In this document: piece by piece, positions 11,618 through 62,259 of the stretch
How the letters are laid out: each line of letters opens with the position of its first letter
How positions within the stretch are numbered: the stretch's first letter is position 1
DNA from: Escherichia coli
GTDB lineage: Bacteria > Pseudomonadota > Gammaproteobacteria > Enterobacterales > Enterobacteriaceae
Direction: 5' to 3' (one strand)
DNA: 64,000 bases
Assembly (NCBI RefSeq): GCF_048403405.1
Contig: NZ_CP183129.1
Notes under the pieces: generated by a model
Told to the model about the DNA's origin: nothing
The model's input: the letters and a program-made list of their open reading frames with translations, nothing else
Database searches by the model: none
Translations under genes and position numbers: made by a program

Positions 11618-12579
11618 TGTCCCTGGCGTGGCCATTATTTCGCGTTACGGAACAGGCAGCGTTGGCTGCCTGGCCGCAAACCGGATGTGGCGACAAAAAT
11701 AAAATTGATGGCCTGGCGGTCACCGCGATGCGCCAGGCATTAAACGACGTCGCTTTTCGTGGGCGAGTGGTTATCGGCGAGGGAGAGATTGACCATGCGC
11801 CGATGCTGTGGATTGGCGAAGAGGTGGGCAAAGGCGATGGGCCAGAAGTCGATATCGCGGTTGACCCGATTGAAGGTACGCGGATGGTGGCGATGGGGCA
11901 GAGCAATGCGCTGGCGGTCATGGCTTTCGCCCCTCGAGATAGCCTGTTACACGCGCCCGATATGTATATGAAAAAACTGGTTGTTAATCGGCTGGCGGCG
12001 GGCGCGATTGATCTGTCCATGCCTCTGGCGGACAACTTGCGCAACGTGGCGAAAGCGTTAGGCAAACCGCTGGACAAGCTGCGTATGGTTACGCTGGATA
12101 AACCGCGCCTGAGTGCCGCAATTGAGGAAGCAACACAGCTGGGCGTGAAGGTTTTTGCCCTGCCGGATGGCGATGTCGCCGCCAGCGTGCTGACCTGCTG
12201 GCAGGATAATCCTTACGATGTGATGTACACCATCGGCGGTGCGCCAGAAGGCGTGATTTCTGCCTGTGCCGTTAAAGCATTAGGCGGGGATATGCAGGCC
12301 GAGCTGATTGACTTTTGTCAGGCTAAAGGGGATTACACGGAAAATCGGCAGATTGCAGTGCAGGAGCGCAAGCGTTGCAAGGAAATGGGCGTTGACGTTA
12401 ACCGTGTGTACTCGCTCGATGAACTGGTGAGGGGGAACGATATCCTCTTTAGCGCTACGGGCGTGACGGGCGGCGAGCTAGTGAACGGTATCCAACAGAC
12501 GGCGAATGGGGTGCGGACGCAGACATTACTGATCGGCGGCGCGGACCAAACGTGTAATATAATAGACTCCCTGCATTGA
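11614..12579 (+). CDS. yggF: class II fructose-1,6-bisphosphatase (GlpX family), 321 aa
   Basis: 321 aa; GlpX-like sequence; 4-bp overlap with yggP stop. Confidence 0.82.
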   Translation: MMSLAWPLFRVTEQAALAAWPQTGCGDKNKIDGLAVTAMRQALNDVAFRGRVVIGEGEIDHAPMLWIGEEVGKGDGPEVDIAVDPIEGTRMVAMGQSNALAVMAFAPRDSLLHAPDMYMKKLVVNRLAAGAIDLSMPLADNLRNVAKALGKPLDKLRMVTLDKPRLSAAIEEATQLGVKVFALPDGDVAASVLTCWQDNPYDVMYTIGGAPEGVISACAVKALGGDMQAELIDFCQAKGDYTENRQIAVQERKRCKEMGVDVNRVYSLDELVRGNDILFSATGVTGGELVNGIQQTANGVRTQTLLIGGADQTCNIIDSLH

Positions 12580-17821: not shown

Positions 17822-18682
<861 letters not shown>

Positions 18683-26983: not shown

Positions 26984-27877
26984 TTAATCCTGACGAAGGA
27001 CTTTGTGACCATAATCGAGTAACGCATCAGTGACTTTACGCATCATGCGGCTTTCAGGAGCAAAGCGGTGCCAGTAGAGCATCCGTCGTTGAAATAGCCC
27101 AGGCGTTAAGTCAATCAGTTCACCGCTGGCCAGCTCTTTCTCGATTTGCAGGTGCGGGATCATACAGCAGGTGGTGCCCTGGCGAGCAAGTTGCACGAAC
27201 GCTTCTGAAGAATTAACGATATGGCAGGGTACGCTGCCAGGAGGCAGATCGAAGTTTTGCTGCAAAAAGGCCTGGTGCATATCGTCAAGATGGTCAAAGG
27301 CGACCACTGGCGCTTTCAATAATGCCGAACGCGTTACGCCGTTAGGGAAATATTTTTCGGCAAACGGTTTTGAGCTGACGAACAGATAGTCGAGCGCACC
27401 AAGTTTATCGACAAGACAACTCGGCAGTGCCTGATGTTGAATACTCACCGCGCCGACCACTTCGCCGCGGCGCAGACGTTCCTGAGTGCGGGTTTCATCT
27501 TCTACCTGCAAGTTGAGGCGGATAGGCGAATCAGCCAACACAGGAGCCAGTGCCGGAAGCAACCACGTCGCCAGACTGTCGGCGTTGACCGCCAGTGAAA
27601 GCAGCAGCGGAGTCGAACCGGTTTGTTCATCGCCCAGCCACTCTTCTTCCAGCAACTCCACCTGGCGCAGCAGTGCCAGCAGTTTTTGCCCTTGTTCCGT
27701 CGGGCGCGGCGGTACGGTACGCACCAACAGCGGCTGCCCGAACATATTTTCCAGTTGCTTAATGCGCTGTGAGACGGCTGATTGTGTAATGCACAGCTTT
27801 TGTGCCGCGCGCTCAAATCCTCGTTCACGTATCACCGCATCCAGTGCCTGTAATGTTCTGTAGTCCGGGCGTTTCAT
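26984..27877 (-). CDS. argP: LysR-family regulator ArgP/IciA, 297 aa
   Basis: Internal ATG gives [43 protein letters not shown]...; 297 aa. Confidence 0.9.
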
Positions 27878-43105: not shown

Positions 43106-43417
43106 ATGCAGCCAAACGACATCACTTTTTTTCAACGTTTCCAGGATGACATTCTGGCTGGGCGTAAAACCATCACCATCCGCGACGAGTCTGAATCGCA
43201 CTTCAAAACGGGTGATGTGCTTCGTGTCGGGCGTTTTGAAGATGACGGTTATTTTTGCACGATTGAAGTCACCGCAACCTCAACCGTAACGCTGGATACA
43301 CTGACGGAAAAACATGCAGAGCAGGAAAATATGACCCTGACTGAACTGAAAAAGGTCATTGCCGACATCTATCCCGGTCAGACACAGTTTTATGTGATTG
43401 AATTTAAATGTCTTTAA
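43106..43417 (+). CDS. yqfB: ASCH-domain protein YqfB (recalled as N4-acetylcytidine amidohydrolase), 103 aa
   Basis: 103 aa [51 protein letters not shown]... Confidence 0.85.
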
Positions 43418-50328: not shown

Positions 50329-51427
50329 ATGTTTGAAATTAATCCGGTAAATAATCGCATTCAGGACCTCACGGAACGCTCCGACGTTCTTAGGGGGTAT
50401 CTTTGACTATGACGCCAAGAAAGAGCGTCTGGAAGAAGTAAACGCCGAGCTGGAACAGCCGGATGTCTGGAACGAACCCGAACGCGCACAGGCGCTGGGT
50501 AAAGAGCGTTCCTCCCTTGAAGCCGTTGTCGATACCCTCGACCAAATGAAACAGGGGCTGGAAGATGTTTCTGGTCTGCTGGAACTGGCTGTAGAAGCTG
50601 ACGACGAAGAAACCTTTAACGAAGCCGTTGCTGAACTCGACGCTCTGGAAGAAAAACTGGCGCAGCTTGAGTTCCGCCGTATGTTCTCTGGCGAATATGA
50701 CAGCGCCGACTGCTACCTCGATATTCAGGCGGGCTCTGGCGGTACGGAAGCACAGGACTGGGCGAGCATGCTTGAGCGTATGTATCTGCGCTGGGCAGAA
50801 TCGCGTGGTTTCAAAACTGAAATCATCGAAGAGTCGGAAGGTGAAGTGGCGGGTATTAAATCCGTGACGATCAAAATCTCCGGCGATTACGCTTACGGCT
50901 GGCTGCGTACAGAAACTGGCGTTCACCGCCTGGTGCGTAAGAGCCCGTTTGACTCCGGCGGTCGTCGCCACACGTCGTTCAGCTCTGCGTTTGTTTACCC
51001 GGAAGTTGATGATGATATTGATATCGAAATCAACCCGGCGGATCTGCGCATTGACGTTTATCGCGCGTCCGGCGCGGGCGGTCAGCACGTTAACCGTACC
51101 GAATCTGCGGTGCGTATTACTCACATCCCGACCGGGATCGTGACCCAGTGCCAGAACGACCGTTCCCAGCACAAGAACAAAGACCAGGCCATGAAGCAGA
51201 TGAAAGCGAAGCTTTATGAACTGGAGATGCAGAAGAAAAATGCCGAGAAACAGGCGATGGAAGATAATAAATCCGACATCGGCTGGGGCAGCCAGATTCG
51301 TTCTTATGTCCTTGATGACTCCCGCATTAAAGATCTGCGCACCGGGGTAGAAACCCGCAACACGCAGGCCGTGCTGGACGGCAGCCTGGATCAATTTATC
51401 GAAGCAAGTTTGAAAGCAGGGTTATGA
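50329..51427 (+). CDS. prfB: peptide chain release factor 2 with programmed +1 ribosomal frameshift (365 aa)
   Basis: Frame-0 ORF from ATG 50329 ([25 protein letters not shown]) hits in-frame TGA at 50404-50406 within AGGGGGTATCTTTGAC; the +1 frame from 50405 continues as [22 protein letters not shown]... to the end of the ORF-track ORF (50546..51427); GGQ motif present. Confidence 0.92.
50390..50410 (+). promoter_or_regulatory. prfB autoregulatory frameshift site (internal SD + CUU UGA C)
   Basis: AGGGGG (SD-like) 3 nt upstream of CTT TGA C at 50401-50407. Confidence 0.9.
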
Positions 51428-53545: not shown

Positions 53546-53667
53546 AATTTCTCACATGTAATTCTAATCACTCATCATTATAGATAATTGAAGAGTGAAA
53601 TGATTAACCAAGTGAGCGTTTATCGACAACCGCCCGTTTTGAGCGGATGTCGACAGGTAAAAACCAT

Positions 53668-53793
53668 TTAAAAAAGCAGCATCATATATTTGAAGCGACT
53701 TTCAATGGCCATTGCAACACAGTCAGAAATGACAGGAATAGAGAGAGTAAAAAGCAACAACAGACTGAATATAGCGCGCATTAAAAGATTCAT
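53668..53793 (-). CDS. small hydrophobic protein (41 aa), possibly YqfG-like
   Basis: Minus-strand ATG (plus 53791-53793) 1 nt after the uacT stop; 41 codons to TAA (plus 53668-53670): MNLLMRAIFSLLLLFTLSIPVISDCVAMAIESRFKYMMLLF; below ORF-track cutoff; I recall a 41-aa small protein near idi in K-12 but cannot verify. Confidence 0.4.
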   Translation of the reverse strand: MNLLMRAIFSLLLLFTLSIPVISDCVAMAIESRFKYMMLLF

Positions 53794-53794
53794 A

Positions 53795-55243
53795 TTATTC
53801 TCCATGCTCATTTTTCTTCAGCTTGCGCATCAGAAGCCACATACGTACTGTCCTGACTTTTAAATCTTTATCAGAGACGGATTCCTTCACCAGATCAGCA
53901 TGATGCTGATAGCCATTAAAGAAGACGTTCAGCACAACGGCGCTAAGGGTTGCGAGCATAATGCCGCTATGCAGCAACGGTTGCAGTACGGCCGGTAACT
54001 TAGAAAAGAAATCGTGAGAGAGCGTCGGAGTCATGCCAACGCCGAGACTGATCGCCACAATATAGAGGTTGTAACGATTGGTGGTGTAGTTACAGCGCGA
54101 CAGAATTCGAATCCCTGTCGCCAGTACCATGCCGAACATCACCAGCCCAGCACCGCCCAGCACAAATTGCGGAATGGAGGCGACCAGCACCGCCATTTTT
54201 GGCACCATGCCAAACAGGATTAATATAATTCCCGAAGAAATACACACCCAGCGGCTATGAACGCGCGTCACGCTAACCAGGCCAACGTTTTGAGAAAATG
54301 ACGTGTGGGGAAAGCTGTTAAACGTTCCGCCTATCATTGTCCCTACGCCATCGACACGCAGCCCGCGAATAATATCGTGTGAAGAGAGTTTACGACCGAC
54401 TATTTCACCCAGTGCCAGGAACATCCCCATCGACTCGATAAACACGATGATTAACACGGCAGTCATGGTCAGAATGGAAACGGGATCGAAAATCGGCATA
54501 CCAAATGACATCGGCGTGACAATCGCAAACCATGAAGCATCATGTAGCCCGGATAAATTGACTTCATTCATCATCCACGAAAGTAAAAAGCCAAATACAA
54601 TCCCCAGTAATACGGCGACGTTGGACATAAATCCTTTCGCATAGCGAGTAATGAGCAAGATAAAAATTAAGACGGCAAAGGAGATACCTAAATAAACGGG
54701 ATTACCATATTGCGGATTCCCTTTACCTCCGGCGGCCCAGTCAATACCCACCTGAATGATGCTAAGCCCGATAGAAGTAATCACAACACCGGTAACCAGT
54801 GGCGGGAATAAAGGCATCAAGCGACCGATAAGTGGCGCTAATAATGTGGTGATAAAACCCGCGGCGATAGTGGCACCGAATATCCCCAGCAGGCCGATAT
54901 CCGGGTTCATGCCAATGGCTATCATTGGTGTTACAGCGGCGAAGGTCACCGACATAATCACCGGCAGGCGGATCCCCATAAAGCGGCCGATACCGATACA
55001 TTGCAATAATGTGACGATCCCGCAGCAAAAGAGATCCGAGCTAATGAGCATCGCAATAGCTTCTTTTGAGAGGCCCAGTCGGTCACCAATCATAAGAGGA
55101 ACAGCGACTGCACCTGCGTACATGACAAGGACGTGTTGCAGACCGAGTATGATCAGCTTTCCTGGTGATAATATGCGGTCAACCTCATCAGTTGGGCGGT
55201 CTTGCCCTGAAGATGAGGGAAGTTGGGAATCTATGGCGCTCAT
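53795..55243 (-). CDS. uacT: uric acid/xanthine permease (NCS2/NAT family), 482 aa
   Basis: Internal ATG gives MSAIDSQLPSSSGQDRPTDEVDRILSPGKLIILGLQHVLVMYAGAVAVPL...; ORF-track 525 aa over-extended. Confidence 0.88.
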   Translation of the reverse strand: MSAIDSQLPSSSGQDRPTDEVDRILSPGKLIILGLQHVLVMYAGAVAVPLMIGDRLGLSKEAIAMLISSDLFCCGIVTLLQCIGIGRFMGIRLPVIMSVTFAAVTPMIAIGMNPDIGLLGIFGATIAAGFITTLLAPLIGRLMPLFPPLVTGVVITSIGLSIIQVGIDWAAGGKGNPQYGNPVYLGISFAVLIFILLITRYAKGFMSNVAVLLGIVFGFLLSWMMNEVNLSGLHDASWFAIVTPMSFGMPIFDPVSILTMTAVLIIVFIESMGMFLALGEIVGRKLSSHDIIRGLRVDGVGTMIGGTFNSFPHTSFSQNVGLVSVTRVHSRWVCISSGIILILFGMVPKMAVLVASIPQFVLGGAGLVMFGMVLATGIRILSRCNYTTNRYNLYIVAISLGVGMTPTLSHDFFSKLPAVLQPLLHSGIMLATLSAVVLNVFFNGYQHHADLVKESVSDKDLKVRTVRMWLLMRKLKKNEHGE

Positions 55244-55678
55244 CAGTGTTTCTCCTTTCGCCCGCCAGAGTAAAAAGCAACCGTTTACGTTAATGAAACT
55301 GTCTAAACACATGCTCGTGGAGTGCCAGTTTTTGCGAGGAAGGGGAGTTAGAGACAGGAATTGCGGAGGCAATCACATAATCGTGGTTAAACCACGAAAA
55401 TGAGAAGAGAACCTGACAATGGAATTATCTGTAATTTTCTCATATTGATATTTCATTAATCATTCTGGCATGTCGCACTCTCGCATTTAATCGTTTTTAT
55501 CTGGATAGCGCTCTTTTGGTCGGCAATGTTGAAGTAATGAAAGCGGCACAGATTGAGGGGCAATAATTTGAACTCAGTCGCAAAATTATAATTAAATCGG
55601 CCATGCTACCTAATATATGCCCATTTATTGCATCGCGAAATTTGAGAAGACATAACTCATTAAATGAAAGGGATGCAA

Positions 55679-57598
55679 ATGAATAAGTTTATCGCTGCTG
55701 AAGCTGCGGAATGTATAGGCTGTCATGCTTGTGAAATTGCCTGTGCGATGGCACATAATCAAGAAAACTGGCCGCTGAGTCACAGTGACTTTCGACCGCG
55801 TATCCACGTTGTAGGGAAAGGCCAGGCTGCGAATCCGGTGGCCTGCCATCACTGCAACAATGCCCCTTGCGTTACGGCTTGTCCGGTTAATGCTCTGACT
55901 TTCCAGCCCGATAGCGTACAACTGGACGAGCAAAAATGTATTGGTTGTAAAAGATGCGCAATCGCTTGCCCCTTTGGCGTCGTTGAGATGGTCGATACGA
56001 TTGCGCAGAAATGCGACCTTTGTAACCAGCGCAGTTCCGGCACGCAAGCCTGTATTGAAGTCTGCCCAACACAGGCGTTACGGCTGATGGACGATAAAGG
56101 GTTGCAGCAGATAAAGGTGGCCCGCCAGCGCAAAACGGCAGCAGGAAAAGCGTCATCAGACGCTCACCCATCTCGCAGTGCAGCGTTGCTCCCCGTTAAC
56201 TCGCGTAAAGGCGCAGATAAAATTTCAGCGAGTGAACGGAAAACCCACTTTGGCGAAATCTATTACGGGCTGGATCCACAACAAGCGACTTATGAGAGTG
56301 ACCGCTGTGTTTATTGCGCCGAAAAAGCTAACTGCAACTGGCATTGCCCGCTGCATAACGCTATTCCGGATTACATCCGTCTGGTGCAGGAAGGAAAGAT
56401 TATTGAAGCGGCAGAACTTTGCCACCAGACCAGTTCCTTACCAGAAATCTGCGGCAGGGTATGTCCACAGGACCGTCTTTGTGAAGGCGCATGTACTTTG
56501 AAAGATCACTCTGGCGCAGTCACTATCGGTAATCTGGAACGCTACATCACCGATACCGCGCTGGCGATGGGCTGGCGTCCCGATGTCAGCAAAGTTGTTC
56601 CCCGTAGCGAAAAAGTGGCGGTGATTGGCGCAGGGCCTGCAGGGTTAGGGTGTGCTGATATTCTGGCGCGCGCAGGAGTTCAGGTTGATGTCTTTGATCG
56701 CCATCCAGAAATTGGCGGTATGCTGACTTTTGGCATACCTCCTTTCAAACTCGATAAAACGGTATTAAGCCAGCGGCGAGAGATATTCACCGCAATGGGA
56801 ATCGACTTTCATCTTAATTGTGAAATTGGCCGCGATATTACCTTTGGCGATTTAACTTCTGAATATGATGCAGTTTTCATCGGCGTGGGGACTTACGGGA
56901 TGATGCGAGCAGATCTGCCGCATGAAGATGCGCCCGGTGTCATTCAGGCTCTACCGTTCCTGACTGCCCATACCCGCCAGCTCATGGGGTTGCCGGAGTC
57001 TGAAGAGTATCCGCTGACGGATGTGGAAGGTAAGCGAGTCGTGGTATTGGGCGGTGGCGATACGACCATGGATTGTTTGCGGACTTCCATCCGCCTCAAT
57101 GCCGCCAGCGTGACCTGCGCGTATCGTCGTGATGAAGTCAGTATGCCGGGCTCGCGCAAAGAGGTGGTCAATGCGCGCGAGGAAGGTGTCGAGTTTCAGT
57201 TCAATGTTCAGCCGCAATATATCGCTTGTGACGAAGATGGGCGTTTAACTGCGGTGGGCCTGATTCGTACAGCCATGGGTGAGCCGGGGCCGGATGGTCG
57301 CCGTCGTCCTCGTCCGGTAGCGGGTTCAGAGTTTGAATTGCCCGCCGATGTTCTCATTATGGCCTTTGGTTTCCAGGCGCATGCCATGCCGTGGTTGCAG
57401 GGCAGCGGAATTAAACTCGATAAATGGGGCCTGATTCAAACCGGTGACGTCGGGTATTTACCTACCCAGACGCATCTGAAAAAAGTCTTTGCTGGTGGTG
57501 ATGCTGTTCATGGCGCGGATCTGGTTGTCACTGCAATGGCCGCAGGAAGGCAGGCGGCGCGCGATATGTTAACTCTGTTTGATACGAAGGCATCGTGA
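55679..57598 (+). CDS. ygfT: Fe-S ferredoxin domain fused to pyridine-nucleotide-disulfide oxidoreductase (GltD-like), 639 aa
   Basis: [26 protein letters not shown]... multiple CxxCxxCxxxCP motifs then NAD/FAD Rossmann GxGxxG ([12 protein letters not shown]). Confidence 0.85.
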
Positions 57599-58086
57599 TG
57601 AAATCGTTAATTATCGTTAATCCGGCTGACTGTATTGGCTGCCGTACTTGTGAAGTAGCCTGTGTGGTCGCTCACCCTTCAGAACAGGAGTTGAATGCCG
57701 ATGTCTTTTTACCCCGGCTGAAGGTACAGCGACTGGACAGCATCAGTGCGCCGGTGATGTGCCATCAGTGTGAAAACGCCCCTTGTGTTAGCGCTTGCCC
57801 CGTGGGGGCGCTGACGATGGGCGAGCAGGTGGTGCAGGCCAATTCTGCCCGTTGTATTGGCTGTCAGAGTTGCGTCAGTGCGTGCCCGTTTGGGATGATA
57901 ACCATTCAGTCGTTGCCGGGGGATACCCGGCAACAAATTGTGAAATGCGATCTCTGTGAACAGCGGGAAGAGGGGCCAGCCTGCGTTGAATCTTGCCCGA
58001 CACAGGCGCTGCAGTTGCTTACTGAAAGAGAACTCAGGCGAGTCCGCCAGCAGCGTATTGTTGCCAGCGGTAAGAATCCTCTGTGA
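57595..58086 (+). CDS. ygfS: 4Fe-4S ferredoxin-type protein, 163 aa
   Basis: 163 aa with four CxxCxxC(x)nCP clusters; 4-bp overlap with ygfT. Confidence 0.85.
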
Positions 58087-58121
58087 AAGAAATCTCCGCG
58101 CTGAAAGGCGCGGAGAATCTA

Positions 58122-59489
58122 TTAGATTGCCCAACCACCCGCGTAAAATGCGACCAGTGCGGCAGTAATGATCACCGTACCAATATTCAGCTTTTGCCAT
58201 TCGCGTGCAAAGACGCGGCCTACGACCAGTGTCACAAAGCCCAGCATAATACCGGTAACGATATTACAAGTCAGAACGATGAACACGGCACACACCAGGC
58301 CAGCCATTGCGTCAATAAAATCATTGAAATCCAGCTTCGAGACGTTACTTAACATCAGCAAACCTACGTACATCAGAGCGGGTGCAGTGGCGTAACCAGG
58401 GATCAAAAATGACAACGGTGATAAGAACAAAATCAGCAGGAATAACGCCCCCACTACGGTTGCGGTCAATCCTGTTTTACCCCCGGCGGCGGTTCCTGCC
58501 GCTGATTCGATATAAACCGCTGCGGGCGCTGCGCCCACCAGGCCGGAGAATATTGAACTTACTGAGTCACTGGTCAGGGCTTTGCCGCCGTTGATGATCT
58601 GGTTGTCTTTATCCAACAAATTCGCCTGACCGGCGACGGCACGGATGGTACCAGTGGCGTCGAACACTGCGGTCATCACCAATGCTAGTACACTCGGAAG
58701 TACAGTTGGCTGGAGTGCGCCCATAATATCGAGGCTGAAAATCAGAGACTTACCATCTTCGCCAGTCAGGCTTGGCATCGCCACCAGACCGTGGTATTTC
58801 ACCGCTGGATCAAAGATTAAGCCGATGATCGAAATTGCAATAATCACCAACAAGATCCCGCCTGGTACGCGGCACTTTTCCAGACCGAAGATGACCGCCA
58901 GCCCCAGCAAGCTCATCATCACCGGGAAGGAGGTAAACGCACCGAGCGCCACTGGCAAGCCTTCAATCGGGTTTTTGATAACCATTCCCACACCGTTAGC
59001 AGCAATCAGCAGCAGAAACAGGCCGATACCGATACCTGTACCGTGAGCTATCCCCATCGGTAAATTACGTAAGATCCAGGTACGCACACCGGTTACGGAA
59101 ATGGCGGTGAAGATGACGCCCATCAGAAAGACCGCGCCCAGTGCGACAGGAACGCTAATTTGTTGCCCGAGAACCAGACTGAATGCGGTAAACGCCGTCA
59201 AGGAAATCGCGCAACCAATCGCCATTGGCAAATTGGCCCATAATCCCATCAGCAACGAGCCGAAGCCCGCGACCAGACAGGTGGCAACAAACACAGCTGC
59301 GGGAGGAAAACCTGCTTTGCCCAGCATTCCCGGAACGACGATAACGGAATAAACCATGGCCAGAAAGGTCGTTAAGCCAGCCAGTACTTCCTGACGAACG
59401 GTACTGCCACGAGCGGTAATTTTAAAATAATTATCCAGCGCGCCCTGTGGCTTTGGTGCGTCCGGTGTTTGTAGGATGTCTCCAGACAT
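58122..59489 (-). CDS. ghxQ: guanine/hypoxanthine permease (NCS2/AzgA-like), 455 aa
   Basis: 455 aa polytopic membrane protein [47 protein letters not shown]... Confidence 0.85.
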
Positions 59490-59524: not shown

Positions 59525-60844
59525 TTAGTTGCGTTCGTACACCAGACGACCATCAACGTAGGTGCGGTAGATCGAACGGTCATCGCCCAACGTCATCATC
59601 ACGAACAATTTGTCGACTAAAGAAACAGAGTTGTCATAGCGCAGCTGCTGTAGCGGAGTGGCGGTGGGTTCCATCACCACGAAATCAGCCTCTTTGCCAG
59701 GTAAAAAGTTGCCAATCAAATCGTCAAGGCCCAGAGATTTCGCTCCGCCGAGCGTGGCCAGGTAAAATGCTTCATATGCCGAGAGGCGATAGCCTTGTAG
59801 TTGCAACACTTTGTAGGCTTCGTTTAGCGTTTGCAGCATGTTGAAAGTTGTTCCGGCACCGATATCCGTTCCCATGCCCACTTTGACTTTCTTCTGCCAT
59901 GCTTTTTTCAAGTTGAATAAGCCGCTGCCGAGGTAAAGGTTGGAGGTCGGACAGAAAGCAATGCTGGATTTGGTTTCGCTGAGACGATCCCACTCTTTTT
60001 CTTCGAGATGGACGCAGTGAGCAAAGACACAGTTTTTACCGGTCAGGCCGTACTGATGGTAAACATCCAGATAGCCATCATGTTCAGGATAAAGTTCTTT
60101 CACCCAGGCAATTTCATCTTTGTTTTCACAGAGATGGGTATGTACCCACGTATCCGGATATTCTTCTTTCAGGCGTTGCGCCATCGCCATCTGTTCAGGA
60201 GATGAGGTAGGGGCGAAGCGTGGCGTAATCGCATACAACAGACGACCATTTTTGTGCCAGCGTTCAATCAGTTCTTTGCTTTGGTGATAGCTGCTTTCGG
60301 CAGTGTCGAGCAGATAATCCGGTGCGTTTCGGTCCATCATCACTTTACCGGCAATCATACGCATATTGATATGACTGGCGGCTTCAAACAGCGCATCAAC
60401 GGATTGCGGATGAACAGTGCCAAACACCAGCGCCGTGGTGGTTCCGTTACGTAAAAGCTGCTTGATGAAGAACGCCGACATCTCGCGGGCGTACTCTAAA
60501 TCCTCATAACGACGTTCAGTAGGGAAGGTGTGTTTATTCAACCACTCCAGCAATTGTTCACCATAGGCCCCCACCATTTCACTTTGCGGATAATGGATAT
60601 GTGTATCGACAAAGCCCGGTACTATCAGTTTGCCGCGATAGTCGCGCACGCGAATGGTGTCAGGAATTTGATGTTTTCCGTCTTCCCATTCGCCAAACCA
60701 TTCCACTTTTCCCTGTTTAATGAGTAATAAACCATCCTCAATAAACCGCAGCGCAGAGGCAATCTCTTCCGGGTTGTCGACCGTACGCGTGACATCAATA
60801 AAACTGCCTCGTACCGCTTTTAACGTGTGTTCTCCTGACATCAT
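59525..60844 (-). CDS. guaD: guanine deaminase, 439 aa
   Basis: Internal start MMSGEHTLKAVRGSFIDVTRTVDNPEEIASALRFIEDGLLLIKQGKVEW...; amidohydrolase HxH motif (DTHIHYPQ). Confidence 0.9.
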   Translation of the reverse strand: MMSGEHTLKAVRGSFIDVTRTVDNPEEIASALRFIEDGLLLIKQGKVEWFGEWEDGKHQIPDTIRVRDYRGKLIVPGFVDTHIHYPQSEMVGAYGEQLLEWLNKHTFPTERRYEDLEYAREMSAFFIKQLLRNGTTTALVFGTVHPQSVDALFEAASHINMRMIAGKVMMDRNAPDYLLDTAESSYHQSKELIERWHKNGRLLYAITPRFAPTSSPEQMAMAQRLKEEYPDTWVHTHLCENKDEIAWVKELYPEHDGYLDVYHQYGLTGKNCVFAHCVHLEEKEWDRLSETKSSIAFCPTSNLYLGSGLFNLKKAWQKKVKVGMGTDIGAGTTFNMLQTLNEAYKVLQLQGYRLSAYEAFYLATLGGAKSLGLDDLIGNFLPGKEADFVVMEPTATPLQQLRYDNSVSLVDKLFVMMTLGDDRSIYRTYVDGRLVYERN

Positions 60845-60858
60845 TGACTCCTTTACTG

Positions 60859-62259
60859 TTAATCCATCTCTTCCGCTGAGGTAATACCAGGCAGAACGTT
60901 TTCCTGTCGGTAGCCACCAGGGAGGATAATATTTAATAAAATCGCAGTTAACCCGCCAGCACAAATAGGGTTTTCAACTAATACATAAATAGAGGCTGGC
61001 AATATTTTAAAAATTTCGGGATCGTAGGAGACGCCAAGCCCTAAACCTAAAGAAGTGGCGACAATAAGTGTTTCACGGCGCTTTAAACCGTTGGTGATGA
61101 TGATGCGAATCCCAGCGATAGCAATCATGGAAAACATCAACGTCATTGCGCCTCCCAGAACTGCCGAGGGTATGGTTGTGAAGAAGCCGCCAATCATCGG
61201 AAACAAGCCGAGGATAACCAGCATTACCGCGATGGTTCGCCCGACATAACGTGAAGCGACGCCAGTCATCTGAATAACCCCATTATTTTGCGCAAACGTG
61301 GTTAAGGGTAATGAACCGACAGCGGAGGCGATAACAGAAACCAGACCATCTGCCAGCACGCCGCCTTTCAGTCGGGACTGATACTCTTCCCCCTGAATAG
61401 GGCGGCGAGAAACCATTGCCGTGGCGGTGATATCGCCGACAGCTTCCAGCACGCTAAGCAAATAAATCGTGCCAACCACCAGGAACTGATGGAAGCTGAA
61501 ACTAAACCCGTATTTGAATGGATGCGGGATGGTGATTAACGGCAAATTGCGCATACTGCTGAAATCCACCATACCCAGGCATAACGACGCGATATAACCG
61601 ACGCATAGCCCAATGGCGATCCCTCCCATGCGTAGCAACGGACTGCGACAGCAGTTAAAGCCGATCACCACAATCAAAACCAATAAACCAACGCCGAGAT
61701 GTTCGTAATTGCCGAACGTACCGCTGCTTTTGGCTGCAAATCCTCCACCAAAATCGATAATGCCGACTTTAATCAGGCTTAAGCCGATCATCAGTACCAC
61801 AATACCGCTGACGGTAGGCGTAATAACCCGACGTAAATAGGGCAAGATAAATGAAGATCCGACAACCAGAAATGCGCCAACGAAGGAGACGCCGAGAAGC
61901 GACGACATGATTAACTCTTCGTGAAAACCGTCGCTTTTCATGCTGCTGCCCAGCGCAATCATGACCGTAACAAATGAAAAATTGACTGACTGAATTGAGA
62001 GTAGGCCAGAACCGACGATGCCGTAGCGGTTTACTTGTAACCAGGTACCAATACCAGAGGCGATCATCGCCATAGAAACAAGATAGGCGGTTGTTTCAGC
62101 GGAAAGCTGTAAGGCCGCACCCACGATTAACGCGGGGGTTACCATCGGAACGAAAATTGCCAACAGATGGGTAATGGCACCAACGAGAGCCTGATGAAAG
62201 GGAGGGCGATCCTCCAGTTCAAATATAAGGTCAGAACCTGCATGGTTTATATCAGACAT
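60859..62259 (-). CDS. xanQ: xanthine permease (NCS2/NAT), 466 aa
   Basis: Internal ATG gives MSDINHAGSDLIFELEDRPPFHQALVGAITHLLAIFVPMV...; ORF-track 485 aa over-extended. Confidence 0.85.
   Translation of the reverse strand: MSDINHAGSDLIFELEDRPPFHQALVGAITHLLAIFVPMVTPALIVGAALQLSAETTAYLVSMAMIASGIGTWLQVNRYGIVGSGLLSIQSVNFSFVTVMIALGSSMKSDGFHEELIMSSLLGVSFVGAFLVVGSSFILPYLRRVITPTVSGIVVLMIGLSLIKVGIIDFGGGFAAKSSGTFGNYEHLGVGLLVLIVVIGFNCCRSPLLRMGGIAIGLCVGYIASLCLGMVDFSSMRNLPLITIPHPFKYGFSFSFHQFLVVGTIYLLSVLEAVGDITATAMVSRRPIQGEEYQSRLKGGVLADGLVSVIASAVGSLPLTTFAQNNGVIQMTGVASRYVGRTIAVMLVILGLFPMIGGFFTTIPSAVLGGAMTLMFSMIAIAGIRIIITNGLKRRETLIVATSLGLGLGVSYDPEIFKILPASIYVLVENPICAGGLTAILLNIILPGGYRQENVLPGITSAEEMD

Follow-up and report, generated by a model that had tools for sequence, protein, structure and literature searches.

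The ygfT-ygfS gene pair of the Escherichia coli urate cluster as a candidate soluble module for formate-derived reducing power

At low oxygen, Escherichia coli degrades urate in a manner that depends on formate and on formate dehydrogenase H (FDH-H), through aegA, ygfT (also named uacF) and ygeV, as later papers cite Iwadate and Kato (2019, J Bacteriol). According to these citations, that study proposed formate dehydrogenase as the electron donor of AegA and YgfT, which would pass the electrons on to NADP+ or urate. The enzymes of the pathway were characterized in 2025: XdhD copurifies with its flavin adenine dinucleotide (FAD) subunit YgfM and carries out NADH-driven conversion of urate to yanthine (2,8-dioxopurine) in vitro without YgfT or YgfS, YgfK dearomatizes yanthine, and the pathway is a net four-electron reduction (Li et al. 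2025). Addition of urate highly induces ygfT and ygfK and modestly induces aegA (Liu et al.). Here we analyzed the ygfT-ygfS gene pair within a 64,000-nucleotide stretch of an E. coli chromosome (contig NZ_CP183129.1), which we call the window. The pair is not new: both genes are annotated, and a genetic role has been published.

Among solved structures, the ferredoxin parts of this pair are most similar to HycB of formate hydrogenlyase. This subunit, with its four [4Fe-4S] clusters, directly contacts FdhF (formate dehydrogenase H) in that complex and relays its electrons, and HydN, YsaA, HycB, HyfA, AegA, YgfS and YgfT form one E. coli paralogue group. Gut Enterobacteria that break down urate anaerobically influence the urate levels of their host, and this urate cluster is the source for uricolytic probiotics now being engineered; the question at stake is the in vivo origin of the four reducing equivalents and the reason for the formate requirement.

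We give about even odds to the reading that ygfT-ygfS is a soluble module that brings the reducing power of formate into anaerobic reductive urate degradation. This best-supported reading is the genetic proposal already published, now backed by synteny. The evidence comes from the composition of the two proteins, from the repeated occurrence of fdhF beside their genes and from the regulation that the pair has in common with the urate genes.

Electron-carrier modules of YgfT and YgfS

The initial annotation of the window, which was made from the sequence alone, placed the pair at 55679-58086, and the RefSeq coordinates are identical. It described YgfT as ferredoxin-like cysteine clusters fused to a GltD-type NAD(P)H/FAD domain and YgfS as a protein with four Fe-S cluster motifs; the Pfam domains and the cysteine motifs agree with both descriptions. 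The features of the pair are as follows.

55679..57598, plus strand: ygfT (uacF) coding sequence, 639 amino acids; RefSeq annotation, NCBIfam NF009451 and Pfam domains
57598..58086, plus strand: ygfS coding sequence, 162 amino acids; RefSeq annotation, 16 cysteines in four motifs
55679..56098, plus strand: YgfT residues 1-140, HycB/HydN-type ferredoxin domain with four 4-Cys motifs (C12-22, C56-68, C87-97 and C112-129)
56240..56572, plus strand: YgfT residues 188-298, Fer4_20 (PF14691, E value of 2e-37), with C210/213/219/223 and C258/262/268/272
56612..57547, plus strand: YgfT residues 312-623, FAD and NAD(P)H dinucleotide-binding domains, Pyr_redox_2 (PF07992)

Pfam assigned Fer4_11/Fer4_7 to residues 1-140 of YgfT, ahead of Fer4_20 and Pyr_redox_2, and residues 141-187 form a basic linker that has no Pfam match. 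Six 4-Cys motifs are present in the protein, four of the CxxCxxCxxxC(P) type and two of the GltD type, and the nucleotide-site residues are GAGPAG (317-322), GGGDT (458-462) and Y482-R483-R484. For the two proteins together, ten [4Fe-4S] clusters are predicted, along with one FAD and a single NAD(P)H site. YgfT is thus made of electron-carrier modules only, which speaks for the formate reading. Its Pfam domains include no DHO_dh/flavin mononucleotide (FMN) TIM barrel and no other substrate-binding catalytic domain, and because the FMN/TIM-barrel domain is absent, YgfT should be an electron carrier and not a substrate reductase.

The cofactor motifs are strongly conserved. Among 41 YgfT homologues with 53 to 93% identity, all motif cysteines but one (23 of 24) are invariant, the remaining one, C258, being conserved at 90% or more; G317-x-G-x-x-G322, G458-G459-x-D461 and Y482-R483-R484 are invariant as well. 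All 16 cysteines of YgfS are invariant in nine orthologues. YgfT scored 1497.4 bits against the NCBIfam equivalog NF009451 ("formate-dependent uric acid utilization protein YgfT"; cutoff, 1154), with a match over residues 1-639 of 639, and RefSeq gives the product the same name; the score against TIGR01318 was 850 bits (cutoff, 483). Both ygfT and ygfS are genuine conserved genes and not chance open reading frames (ORFs). Compared with the K-12 proteins, there are six amino acid differences in YgfT and three in YgfS. One of these, at YgfT residue 196 (56264-56266), replaces the Cys of K-12 with Tyr in the window strain; C196Y lies just ahead of the first GltD-type cluster motif and does not affect a conserved cluster ligand.

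The homologies of the ferredoxin portions point to the FDH-H system. The N-terminal domain of YgfT is 46% identical to YgfS, 48% identical to the AegA N terminus and 39% identical to HydN, and a sequence comparison with solved structures puts HycB of formate hydrogenlyase first (7z0s_B, E value of 1.9e-30), followed by HycB3/4 of hydrogen-dependent CO2 reductase (HDCR). The same two hits head the list for YgfS (7z0s_B, E value of 4.5e-31), which is 45% identical to the AegA N-terminal domain, 40% identical to HydN and 36% identical to HycB. With a score of 137.8 bits against a cutoff of 260, YgfS falls short of the HydN equivalog NF007658, and we class it as a HydN paralogue and not as HydN itself.

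The C-terminal portion is as clearly related to GltD. Residues 171-639 of YgfT are 60% identical to both E. coli GltD and AegA and 34% identical to YgfK, and the 60% identity to the GltD domain spans about 450 residues. Fer4_20 of YgfT aligns with the cluster region of Azospirillum brasilense GltD, and the NADPH-site stretch is nearly identical to that of this NADPH-dependent enzyme. An AlphaFold2 model of YgfT (mean predicted local distance difference test score [pLDDT], 81; predicted template-modeling score [pTM], 0.73) superposes on NfnB (5jca_L) and GltD (6s6s_E), each with a template-modeling score (TM) of 0.89. Structural matches for residues from about 180 to 630 were 5jca_L (E value of 4e-44), 9bov_A and 8oh5_C, and none of the matches listed is a solved chain that spans the whole fusion. 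The fused architecture appears to define a taxonomically narrow family, because P0121 alone, out of the best 150 representatives at 50% identity (from 1.84 billion proteins), aligns with YgfT starting at residue 1. The gene for P0121 has a YgfS-like gene downstream and lies in a nonuricolytic context.

fdhF and uricolytic genes around ygfT-ygfS

We carried out the gene-neighborhood comparison that the initial annotation had suggested on 13 loci with YgfT orthologues outside E. coli, annotated by tblastn with E. coli reference proteins. Four of the 12 loci obtained from a contig scan with YgfT (L012-L015) held an ordinary gltD, whose product is 64 to 87% identical to GltD, and were discarded. 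Of the 13 orthologous loci, all except that of Arsenophonus are part of a uricolytic or purine cluster, and the synteny of ygfT with uricolytic genes is kept across at least 10 genera.

The gene for FdhF stands beside ygfT-ygfS in 6 of the 13 loci, and it does so in two distinct arrangements. One is found in Klebsiella aerogenes, Salmonella enterica subsp. diarizonae and Cedecea colo, where fdhF adjoins uacT, across the divergent promoter region from ygfT-ygfS; this fdhF is of the selenocysteine type (TGA at codon 140), and its product is 92% (Klebsiella), 93% (Salmonella) and 86% (Cedecea) identical to E. coli FdhF. The other is that of Erwinia oleae, Pantoea sp. BAV 3049 and Erwinia sp. BNK-24-b, where fdhF follows ygfS on the same strand with an 8-nucleotide overlap or a 14-nucleotide gap, which we read as a ygfT-ygfS-fdhF operon. 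The operon-type protein has Cys140 in place of selenocysteine and is 61 to 62% identical to E. coli FdhF, and the Erwinia oleae protein passes TIGR01591 (formate dehydrogenase alpha) with 892 bits (cutoff, 666).

L018 5781-7928, L022 2538-4685 and L024 5736-7883: selenocysteine-type fdhF by uacT (Klebsiella, Salmonella diarizonae and Cedecea)
L020 12456-14606, L023 12452-14602 and L025 12440-14590: cysteine-type fdhF in operons (Erwinia and Pantoea)

Chance hardly explains why six of the sampled lineages show fdhF in two independent arrangements. This synteny fits the HycB-type homology of the ferredoxin portions and the reported FDH-H dependence. The repeated occurrence of fdhF beside ygfT-ygfS is new in this analysis. 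The initial annotation did not identify FDH-H as the likely electron source, and the fdhF neighborhood supports that source.

The two genes of the pair are closely joined. In the window, ygfT and ygfS overlap by one base within TGATG, and in all nine orthologous pairs examined the ygfT stop codon overlaps the ygfS start codon (TGATG or ATGA), which points to translational coupling.

Most of the loci outside Escherichia have a further feature: ygfT adjoins a gene for a fused XdhA+XdhB-like molybdo-enzyme, together with a small [2Fe-2S] subunit, in place of XdhD-YgfM. The fused protein has 990 to 1076 amino acids, is about 29% identical to XdhA and presumably takes the place of XdhD-YgfM in reducing urate there.

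L018 1881-5596 and L020 5950-9642, with equivalents in L021, L023, L024, L025 and L027: fused molybdo-enzyme

One related pair was found in other surroundings. At L029 10001-12544, a YgfT/AegA-like protein (670 amino acids, 55% identical) is followed by a YgfS-like ferredoxin (170 amino acids), with ftsYEX, rpoH, dcrB and tusA nearby and no uricolytic genes around it. A two-gene ygfT-ygfS-like unit thus appears to exist outside the urate cluster too.

Promoter elements, co-regulation and chromosomal context

Published expression data place ygfT with the purine genes. The YgeV iModulon holds ygfT together with xdhABC, ygeWXY, hyuA, ygfK, ssnA, ygfM, xdhD and uacT, and ygfT expression is reported to be lower in a ygeV mutant. 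Co-regulation with xdhD and the purine genes, which the initial annotation had offered as a check on its idea, is therefore borne out for ygfT. The regulatory features in and around the pair are as follows.

55438..55450, no strand assigned: palindromic element TCTCATATTGATA, candidate upstream activator site in the uacT-ygfT divergent intergenic region
55617..55632, plus strand: sigma-54-type -24/-12 promoter element ATGCCCATTTATTGCA, with a canonical -12 TTGCA and with TG for the -24 GG doublet
55667..55673, plus strand: Shine-Dalgarno-like AAAGGGA, 5 nucleotides before the ygfT ATG; the aligned orthologues share an A(A/G)GGA block
55956..55971, no strand assigned: PurR-box-like GCGCAATCGCTTGCCC inside ygfT, over codons C93-A-I-A-C-P98
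58093..58116, no strand assigned: GC-rich hairpin between convergent ygfS and ghxQ, with a 9-bp stem that has seven G-C pairs

The -24/-12 element corresponds to OS32 (TATGCCCGTTTATTGCA), a sigma-54 site from chromatin immunoprecipitation sequencing (ChIP-seq) that was assigned to ygfT with a low motif score of 4.5, and sigma-54 ChIP-seq sites were also found at xdhA, ygeW and ygfK (Bonocora et al. 2015). In our alignment of 11 genera, the -24 G and C and the -12 TTGCA are conserved in 10, at a fixed distance of about 42 to 47 nucleotides from the ATG, and the first G of the canonical -24 GG is T or C in all 11 and never G. This noncanonical -24 agrees with the weak published ChIP-seq signal. 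The candidate sigma-54 promoter is supported by the ChIP and ygeV data, and its sequence deviates at -24. A scan of 55200-58200 with the sigma-70 consensus returned no more sites than were found in shuffled sequence.

A k-mer comparison of the sigma-54 promoter regions revealed a palindrome common to them, with the consensus T[A/C]TCA-N3-TGA[T/G]A (TCTCA/TATCA-N3-TGAGA/TGATA). In the window, the element lies about 229 bp upstream of the ygfT ATG and about 180 bp upstream of the -24/-12 element. In 46 kb of K-12 there are three exact copies of the 12-mer CTCATATTGATA, all of them intergenic (upstream of xdhA, ygeW and ygfT), against a chance expectation of 0.27 even with one mismatch allowed, and a perfect palindrome (TATCATAATGATA) lies upstream of ygfK.

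12126-12137, 17943-17955, 27791-27803 and 43161-43173 in K-12 locus L005: copies of the palindrome

A more degenerate form, T[A/C/T]TCA-N3-TGA[T/G/A]A, is found 170 to 270 bp upstream of ygfT in all orthologous uricolytic loci scanned, as well as in the ygeV-ygeW intergenic region and upstream of ygfK or the xdh-like operon where the loci hold them. The palindrome scan found no copy in the aegA locus or in L029, and the fdhF and hyc loci each gave one degenerate TTTCA-type match. An exact inverted-repeat enumeration over the four sigma-54 promoter regions gave no shared element, with half-site and gap settings that were too strict. The palindrome is likely the operator of the sigma-54 activator YgeV, which would bind there, and we found no description of this candidate operator in the papers that we consulted, so that it is new here.

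Two further sites concern PurR. A PurR region from chromatin immunoprecipitation on microarrays (ChIP-chip) has been assigned to "ygfT-ygfS," and GCGCAATCGCTTGCCC is the reverse complement of the motif listed for it (Cho et al. 2011). This motif lies about 280 bp into the ygfT coding sequence, and because it coincides with Fe-S ligand codons (C-A-I-A-C-P), selection on the protein rather than binding of PurR may account for its conservation. The second site, AAGCAACCGTTTACGT at 55275-55290, is 32 nucleotides upstream of the uacT start, just outside the ChIP-chip region for ygfT-ygfS, and resembles the PurR boxes of that study (Cho et al. 2011). It may be a PurR operator for uacT. It agrees with the PurR consensus at 13 of its 16 positions.

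At the other end of the pair, the hairpin at 58093-58116 is the sole convincing terminator in a scan of 55200-58200. Its T-rich tail is on the minus (ghxQ) strand only; it is probably a shared terminator, one that the ygfTS transcript could also use.

The flanking genes named by the initial annotation are those that RefSeq annotates.

53795-55243, minus strand: uacT, divergent from ygfT
58122-59489, minus strand: ghxQ, convergent with ygfS
59525-60841, minus strand: guaD
60859-62259, minus strand: xanQ
from 62424 and continuing past the window end, minus strand: xdhD

Positions 55000-59000 of the window are 100% identical to several RefSeq strains, which identifies the window as E. coli chromosome, and a match to this region is present in 5330 of 5426 complete E. 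coli genomes. The pair is near-core in E. coli and not universal, because 96 of the 5426 genomes have no match and a further 152 cover less than 80% of the region. In one E. coli genome, a copy of the ygfT-ygfS region is on a plasmid. Pfam gave zero matches for two antisense ORFs (57709-58200 and 55625-56047, both on the minus strand) and for an internal ORF at 56178-56501, and an Rfam search of 55000-58400 gave zero matches. Elsewhere in the window, prfB (about 50329-51427) is annotated by RefSeq with its programmed frameshift, and two tiny RefSeq-annotated proteins, YqfH (23 amino acids) and YqfG (41 amino acids), are encoded at 53600-53793, between idi and uacT.

Proposed electron flow through the pair and comparison with known systems

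In the reading that we favor, FdhF would oxidize formate and hand the electrons to a HycB-like [4Fe-4S] chain, formed by YgfS, the N-terminal domain of YgfT or both. The next carriers would be the two GltD-type clusters of YgfT and then its FAD, which would reduce NAD(P)+, most likely NADP+, because the GltD-type site is strictly conserved. The resulting NAD(P)H would serve XdhD-YgfM in the conversion of urate to yanthine and YgfK in the dearomatization of yanthine. The pair would be transcribed from its weak noncanonical sigma-54 promoter under YgeV, together with xdhABC, ygeWXY, ygfK-ssnA-ygfM-xdhD and uacT. The CO2/formate couple is at about -420 mV and the NAD(P)+/NAD(P)H couple at -320 mV, and because the formate couple lies below the other, the proposed flow is downhill. 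A more specific form of this proposal, which we put forward tentatively and hold somewhat less probable than not, is that FdhF, YgfS and YgfT make up a dedicated soluble formate:NAD(P)+ (or formate:urate-pathway) oxidoreductase, a third FDH-H complex beside the formate hydrogenlyases FHL-1 and FHL-2. E. coli would borrow its single selenocysteine-containing FdhF for this complex, Erwinia and Pantoea would have a hard-wired Cys-type FdhF, and the uricolytic regulon, with ygfTS in it, would be switched on by YgeV at the palindrome. A literature search for an enzyme that combines a formate dehydrogenase with HycB-like and GltD-like parts returned nothing relevant.

Several observations weigh against the formate reading. 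XdhD-YgfM is active with NADH alone in vitro, so that the module is not obligatory for the chemistry. In a bacterial two-hybrid assay, AegA did not interact with FdhF and gave a signal with HydN, YsaA and HycB, and deletion of aegA left the dye-linked activity of FDH-H unchanged. In the papers that we consulted, we found no biochemical assay of YgfT or YgfS. No fdhF lies within 10 kb in the loci of Escherichia, Citrobacter, Atlantibacter, Mixta, Buttiauxella, Serratia and Arsenophonus, 7 of the 13 sampled loci lack a nearby fdhF, and E. coli's own fdhF is about 1.27 Mb from ygfT-ygfS. GltD-type modules usually run from NADPH to the Fe-S clusters, the opposite of the direction proposed. The published YgeV iModulon gene list does not contain ygfS. 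Finally, YgfS cannot be an indispensable adaptor and is dispensable in some lineages, because ygfS has been lost and ygfT kept in three of them: Citrobacter sp. R56 and Atlantibacter, where the gap between ygfT and ghxQ is only 55 to 65 bp, and Arsenophonus.

L008 11911-11975, L026 11944-12000 and L019 11950-12518: loci that retain ygfT and lack ygfS

The Arsenophonus locus also stands apart in its context. In Arsenophonus apicola, an insect symbiont, L019 7967-11950 holds a divergent pair of a xanthine/uracil-family permease gene and a ygfT orthologue (65% identity), with no other uricolytic gene within 10 kb, and it raises the question of what YgfT does on its own.

The readings that compete with ours differ in where the electrons enter YgfT and where they leave it. 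The idea of the initial annotation, an electron-transfer module that feeds or drains XdhD, corresponds to a direct wire in which FDH-H electrons would pass through the YgfS and YgfT clusters into the Fe-S centers of XdhD, YgfK or both with no free NAD(P)H, giving urate a donor of lower potential than NADH and leaving the YgfT FAD/NAD(P)H site as a side outlet or inlet. We regard this as unlikely, and it is nonetheless the rival with the most in its favor. The xanthine/urate couple lies at about -360 mV, below NADH, so that NADH-driven reduction of urate is not strongly favorable and thermodynamically marginal; the predicted number of [4Fe-4S] clusters, ten, is high for a plain formate:NADP+ reductase; YgfS, as an additional and separable ferredoxin, could bind a second partner; and ygfTS adjoins molybdo-enzyme genes in all uricolytic loci examined. 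Iwadate and Kato are cited as allowing transfer "directly to uric acid." Set against this, XdhD has its own FAD subunit and YgfK its own FAD/NAD(P)H domain, both use pyridine nucleotide in vitro, and the strict conservation of the YgfT NADPH site in the 41 homologues argues for its use. What stands of the earlier idea is an electron-transfer module within the purine cluster, as the domains, the iModulon and the urate induction indicate, and feeding (reduction) rather than draining; the specific link to XdhD is not supported, and XdhD-YgfM works with NADH alone in vitro. The remark that the physiological reaction was not firmly established holds for the reaction itself; as to the role, it missed the 2019 genetics on formate and FDH-H, as these are cited in later papers.

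If instead YgfT ran in the forward GltD direction, it would oxidize NAD(P)H and pass electrons through its clusters and YgfS to an acceptor (XdhD, YgfK or another), and the need for formate would be indirect, for example through induction or redox state. All characterized nonbifurcating GltD-like modules run that way, the C-terminal part of YgfT has the GltD identity and an intact NADPH site described above, AegA showed no link to FdhF in the two-hybrid or activity tests, and 7 of the 13 loci have no fdhF nearby. We nevertheless think this improbable: it leaves unexplained the repeated and independently arranged recruitment of fdhF beside or into the ygfTS operon, the HycB-type ferredoxin homology and the reported formate and FDH-H dependence, and the presumed acceptors already own NAD(P)H entry sites. 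A scheme like that of Nfn, in which the YgfT FAD would split or merge electrons between an Fe-S branch (formate/FdhF) and a partner of higher potential, has been raised as a possibility for AegA in the Vanoni review; the C-terminal module is structurally closest to the bifurcating NfnB, and GltD-like modules occur in the bifurcating NfnABC and StnABC. Its probability seems small to us, as no NfnA-like ([2Fe-2S] plus FAD) or other second-branch subunit is encoded beside ygfTS in E. coli or the 13 loci, and the 60% identity to nonbifurcating GltD stands against 34 to 37% to NfnB in the fold alignment. Least probable of all, and in our judgment very improbable, is a function unrelated to purines (a cryptic glutamate-synthase-like or a selenium/selenate-related one) with an accidental position in the cluster. 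Older annotations such as "glutamate synthase small chain" or "putative oxidoreductase" and the L029 pair, nonuricolytic in context and without the palindrome, would suit it, while the uricolytic synteny across at least 10 genera, the cis element in common with other cluster promoters, the urate induction of ygfT and its place in the YgeV iModulon, and the lack of a gltB-like partner all speak against it.

If YgfT-YgfS does link FDH-H to the pathway, the module would set the electron supply and hence the flux, ygfT-ygfS would be a sensible part to coexpress in engineered strains, and the AegA/YgfT family would gain a function and FdhF a further role outside formate hydrogenlyase. The fdhF synteny and the candidate YgeV operator make this biochemical question directly testable.

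Among known systems, the nearest to YgfT is AegA (E. coli b2468), which has the same order of a four-cluster ferredoxin domain and a GltD-like module (48% N-terminal and 60% C-terminal identity), also bears the NCBIfam name "formate-dependent uric acid utilization protein" and, like YgfT, is cited as needed for formate-dependent urate degradation. Unlike ygfT, aegA is monocistronic, adjoins narQ far from the purine cluster, has no ygfS-like gene beside it and lacks the shared palindrome, and its urate induction is modest where that of ygfT is strong. GltD, the small (beta) subunit of NADPH-dependent glutamate synthase, resembles YgfT in its two [4Fe-4S] motifs, its FAD site and its NADPH site; YgfT differs in the extra N-terminal four-cluster ferredoxin, in its electron partner, in a context of urate catabolism and not nitrogen assimilation, and probably in the direction of electron flow. 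No gltB-like gene is present in the 44-kb E. coli neighborhood or in any orthologous locus examined, which rules out a glutamate synthase subunit, and the genuine E. coli gltD is a separate gene elsewhere. YgfK and dihydropyrimidine dehydrogenase (DPD) share the Fer4_20 plus Pyr_redox_2 module with YgfT (34% identity in the case of YgfK), and ygfK lies in the same cluster as ygfT and is coinduced with it; these enzymes have an additional FMN/TIM-barrel catalytic domain that reduces the heterocycle, and its absence from YgfT rules out a reductase of the DPD/YgfK type. NfnB of NfnAB and the GltD-like subunits of NfnABC and StnABC combine FAD with two [4Fe-4S] clusters, as YgfT does, and link NADP(H) with low-potential Fe-S carriers, but YgfT is distinguished by its low identity to NfnB and by the lack of an NfnA-type second subunit, so that we do not assign it to the Nfn-type enzymes. 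HycB, HydN and YsaA, the FDH-H-associated ferredoxins, share four 4-Cys motifs with YgfS and with the N-terminal domain of YgfT, at 36 to 40% identity to HycB/HydN; unlike HycB, YgfS is shorter, lacks the long insert between the third and fourth motifs and is encoded with a flavoprotein and not with a hydrogenase. From these comparisons, we assign YgfT to the YgfT/AegA family, with a bona fide GltD-like module, and YgfS to the HycB/HydN group of ferredoxins.

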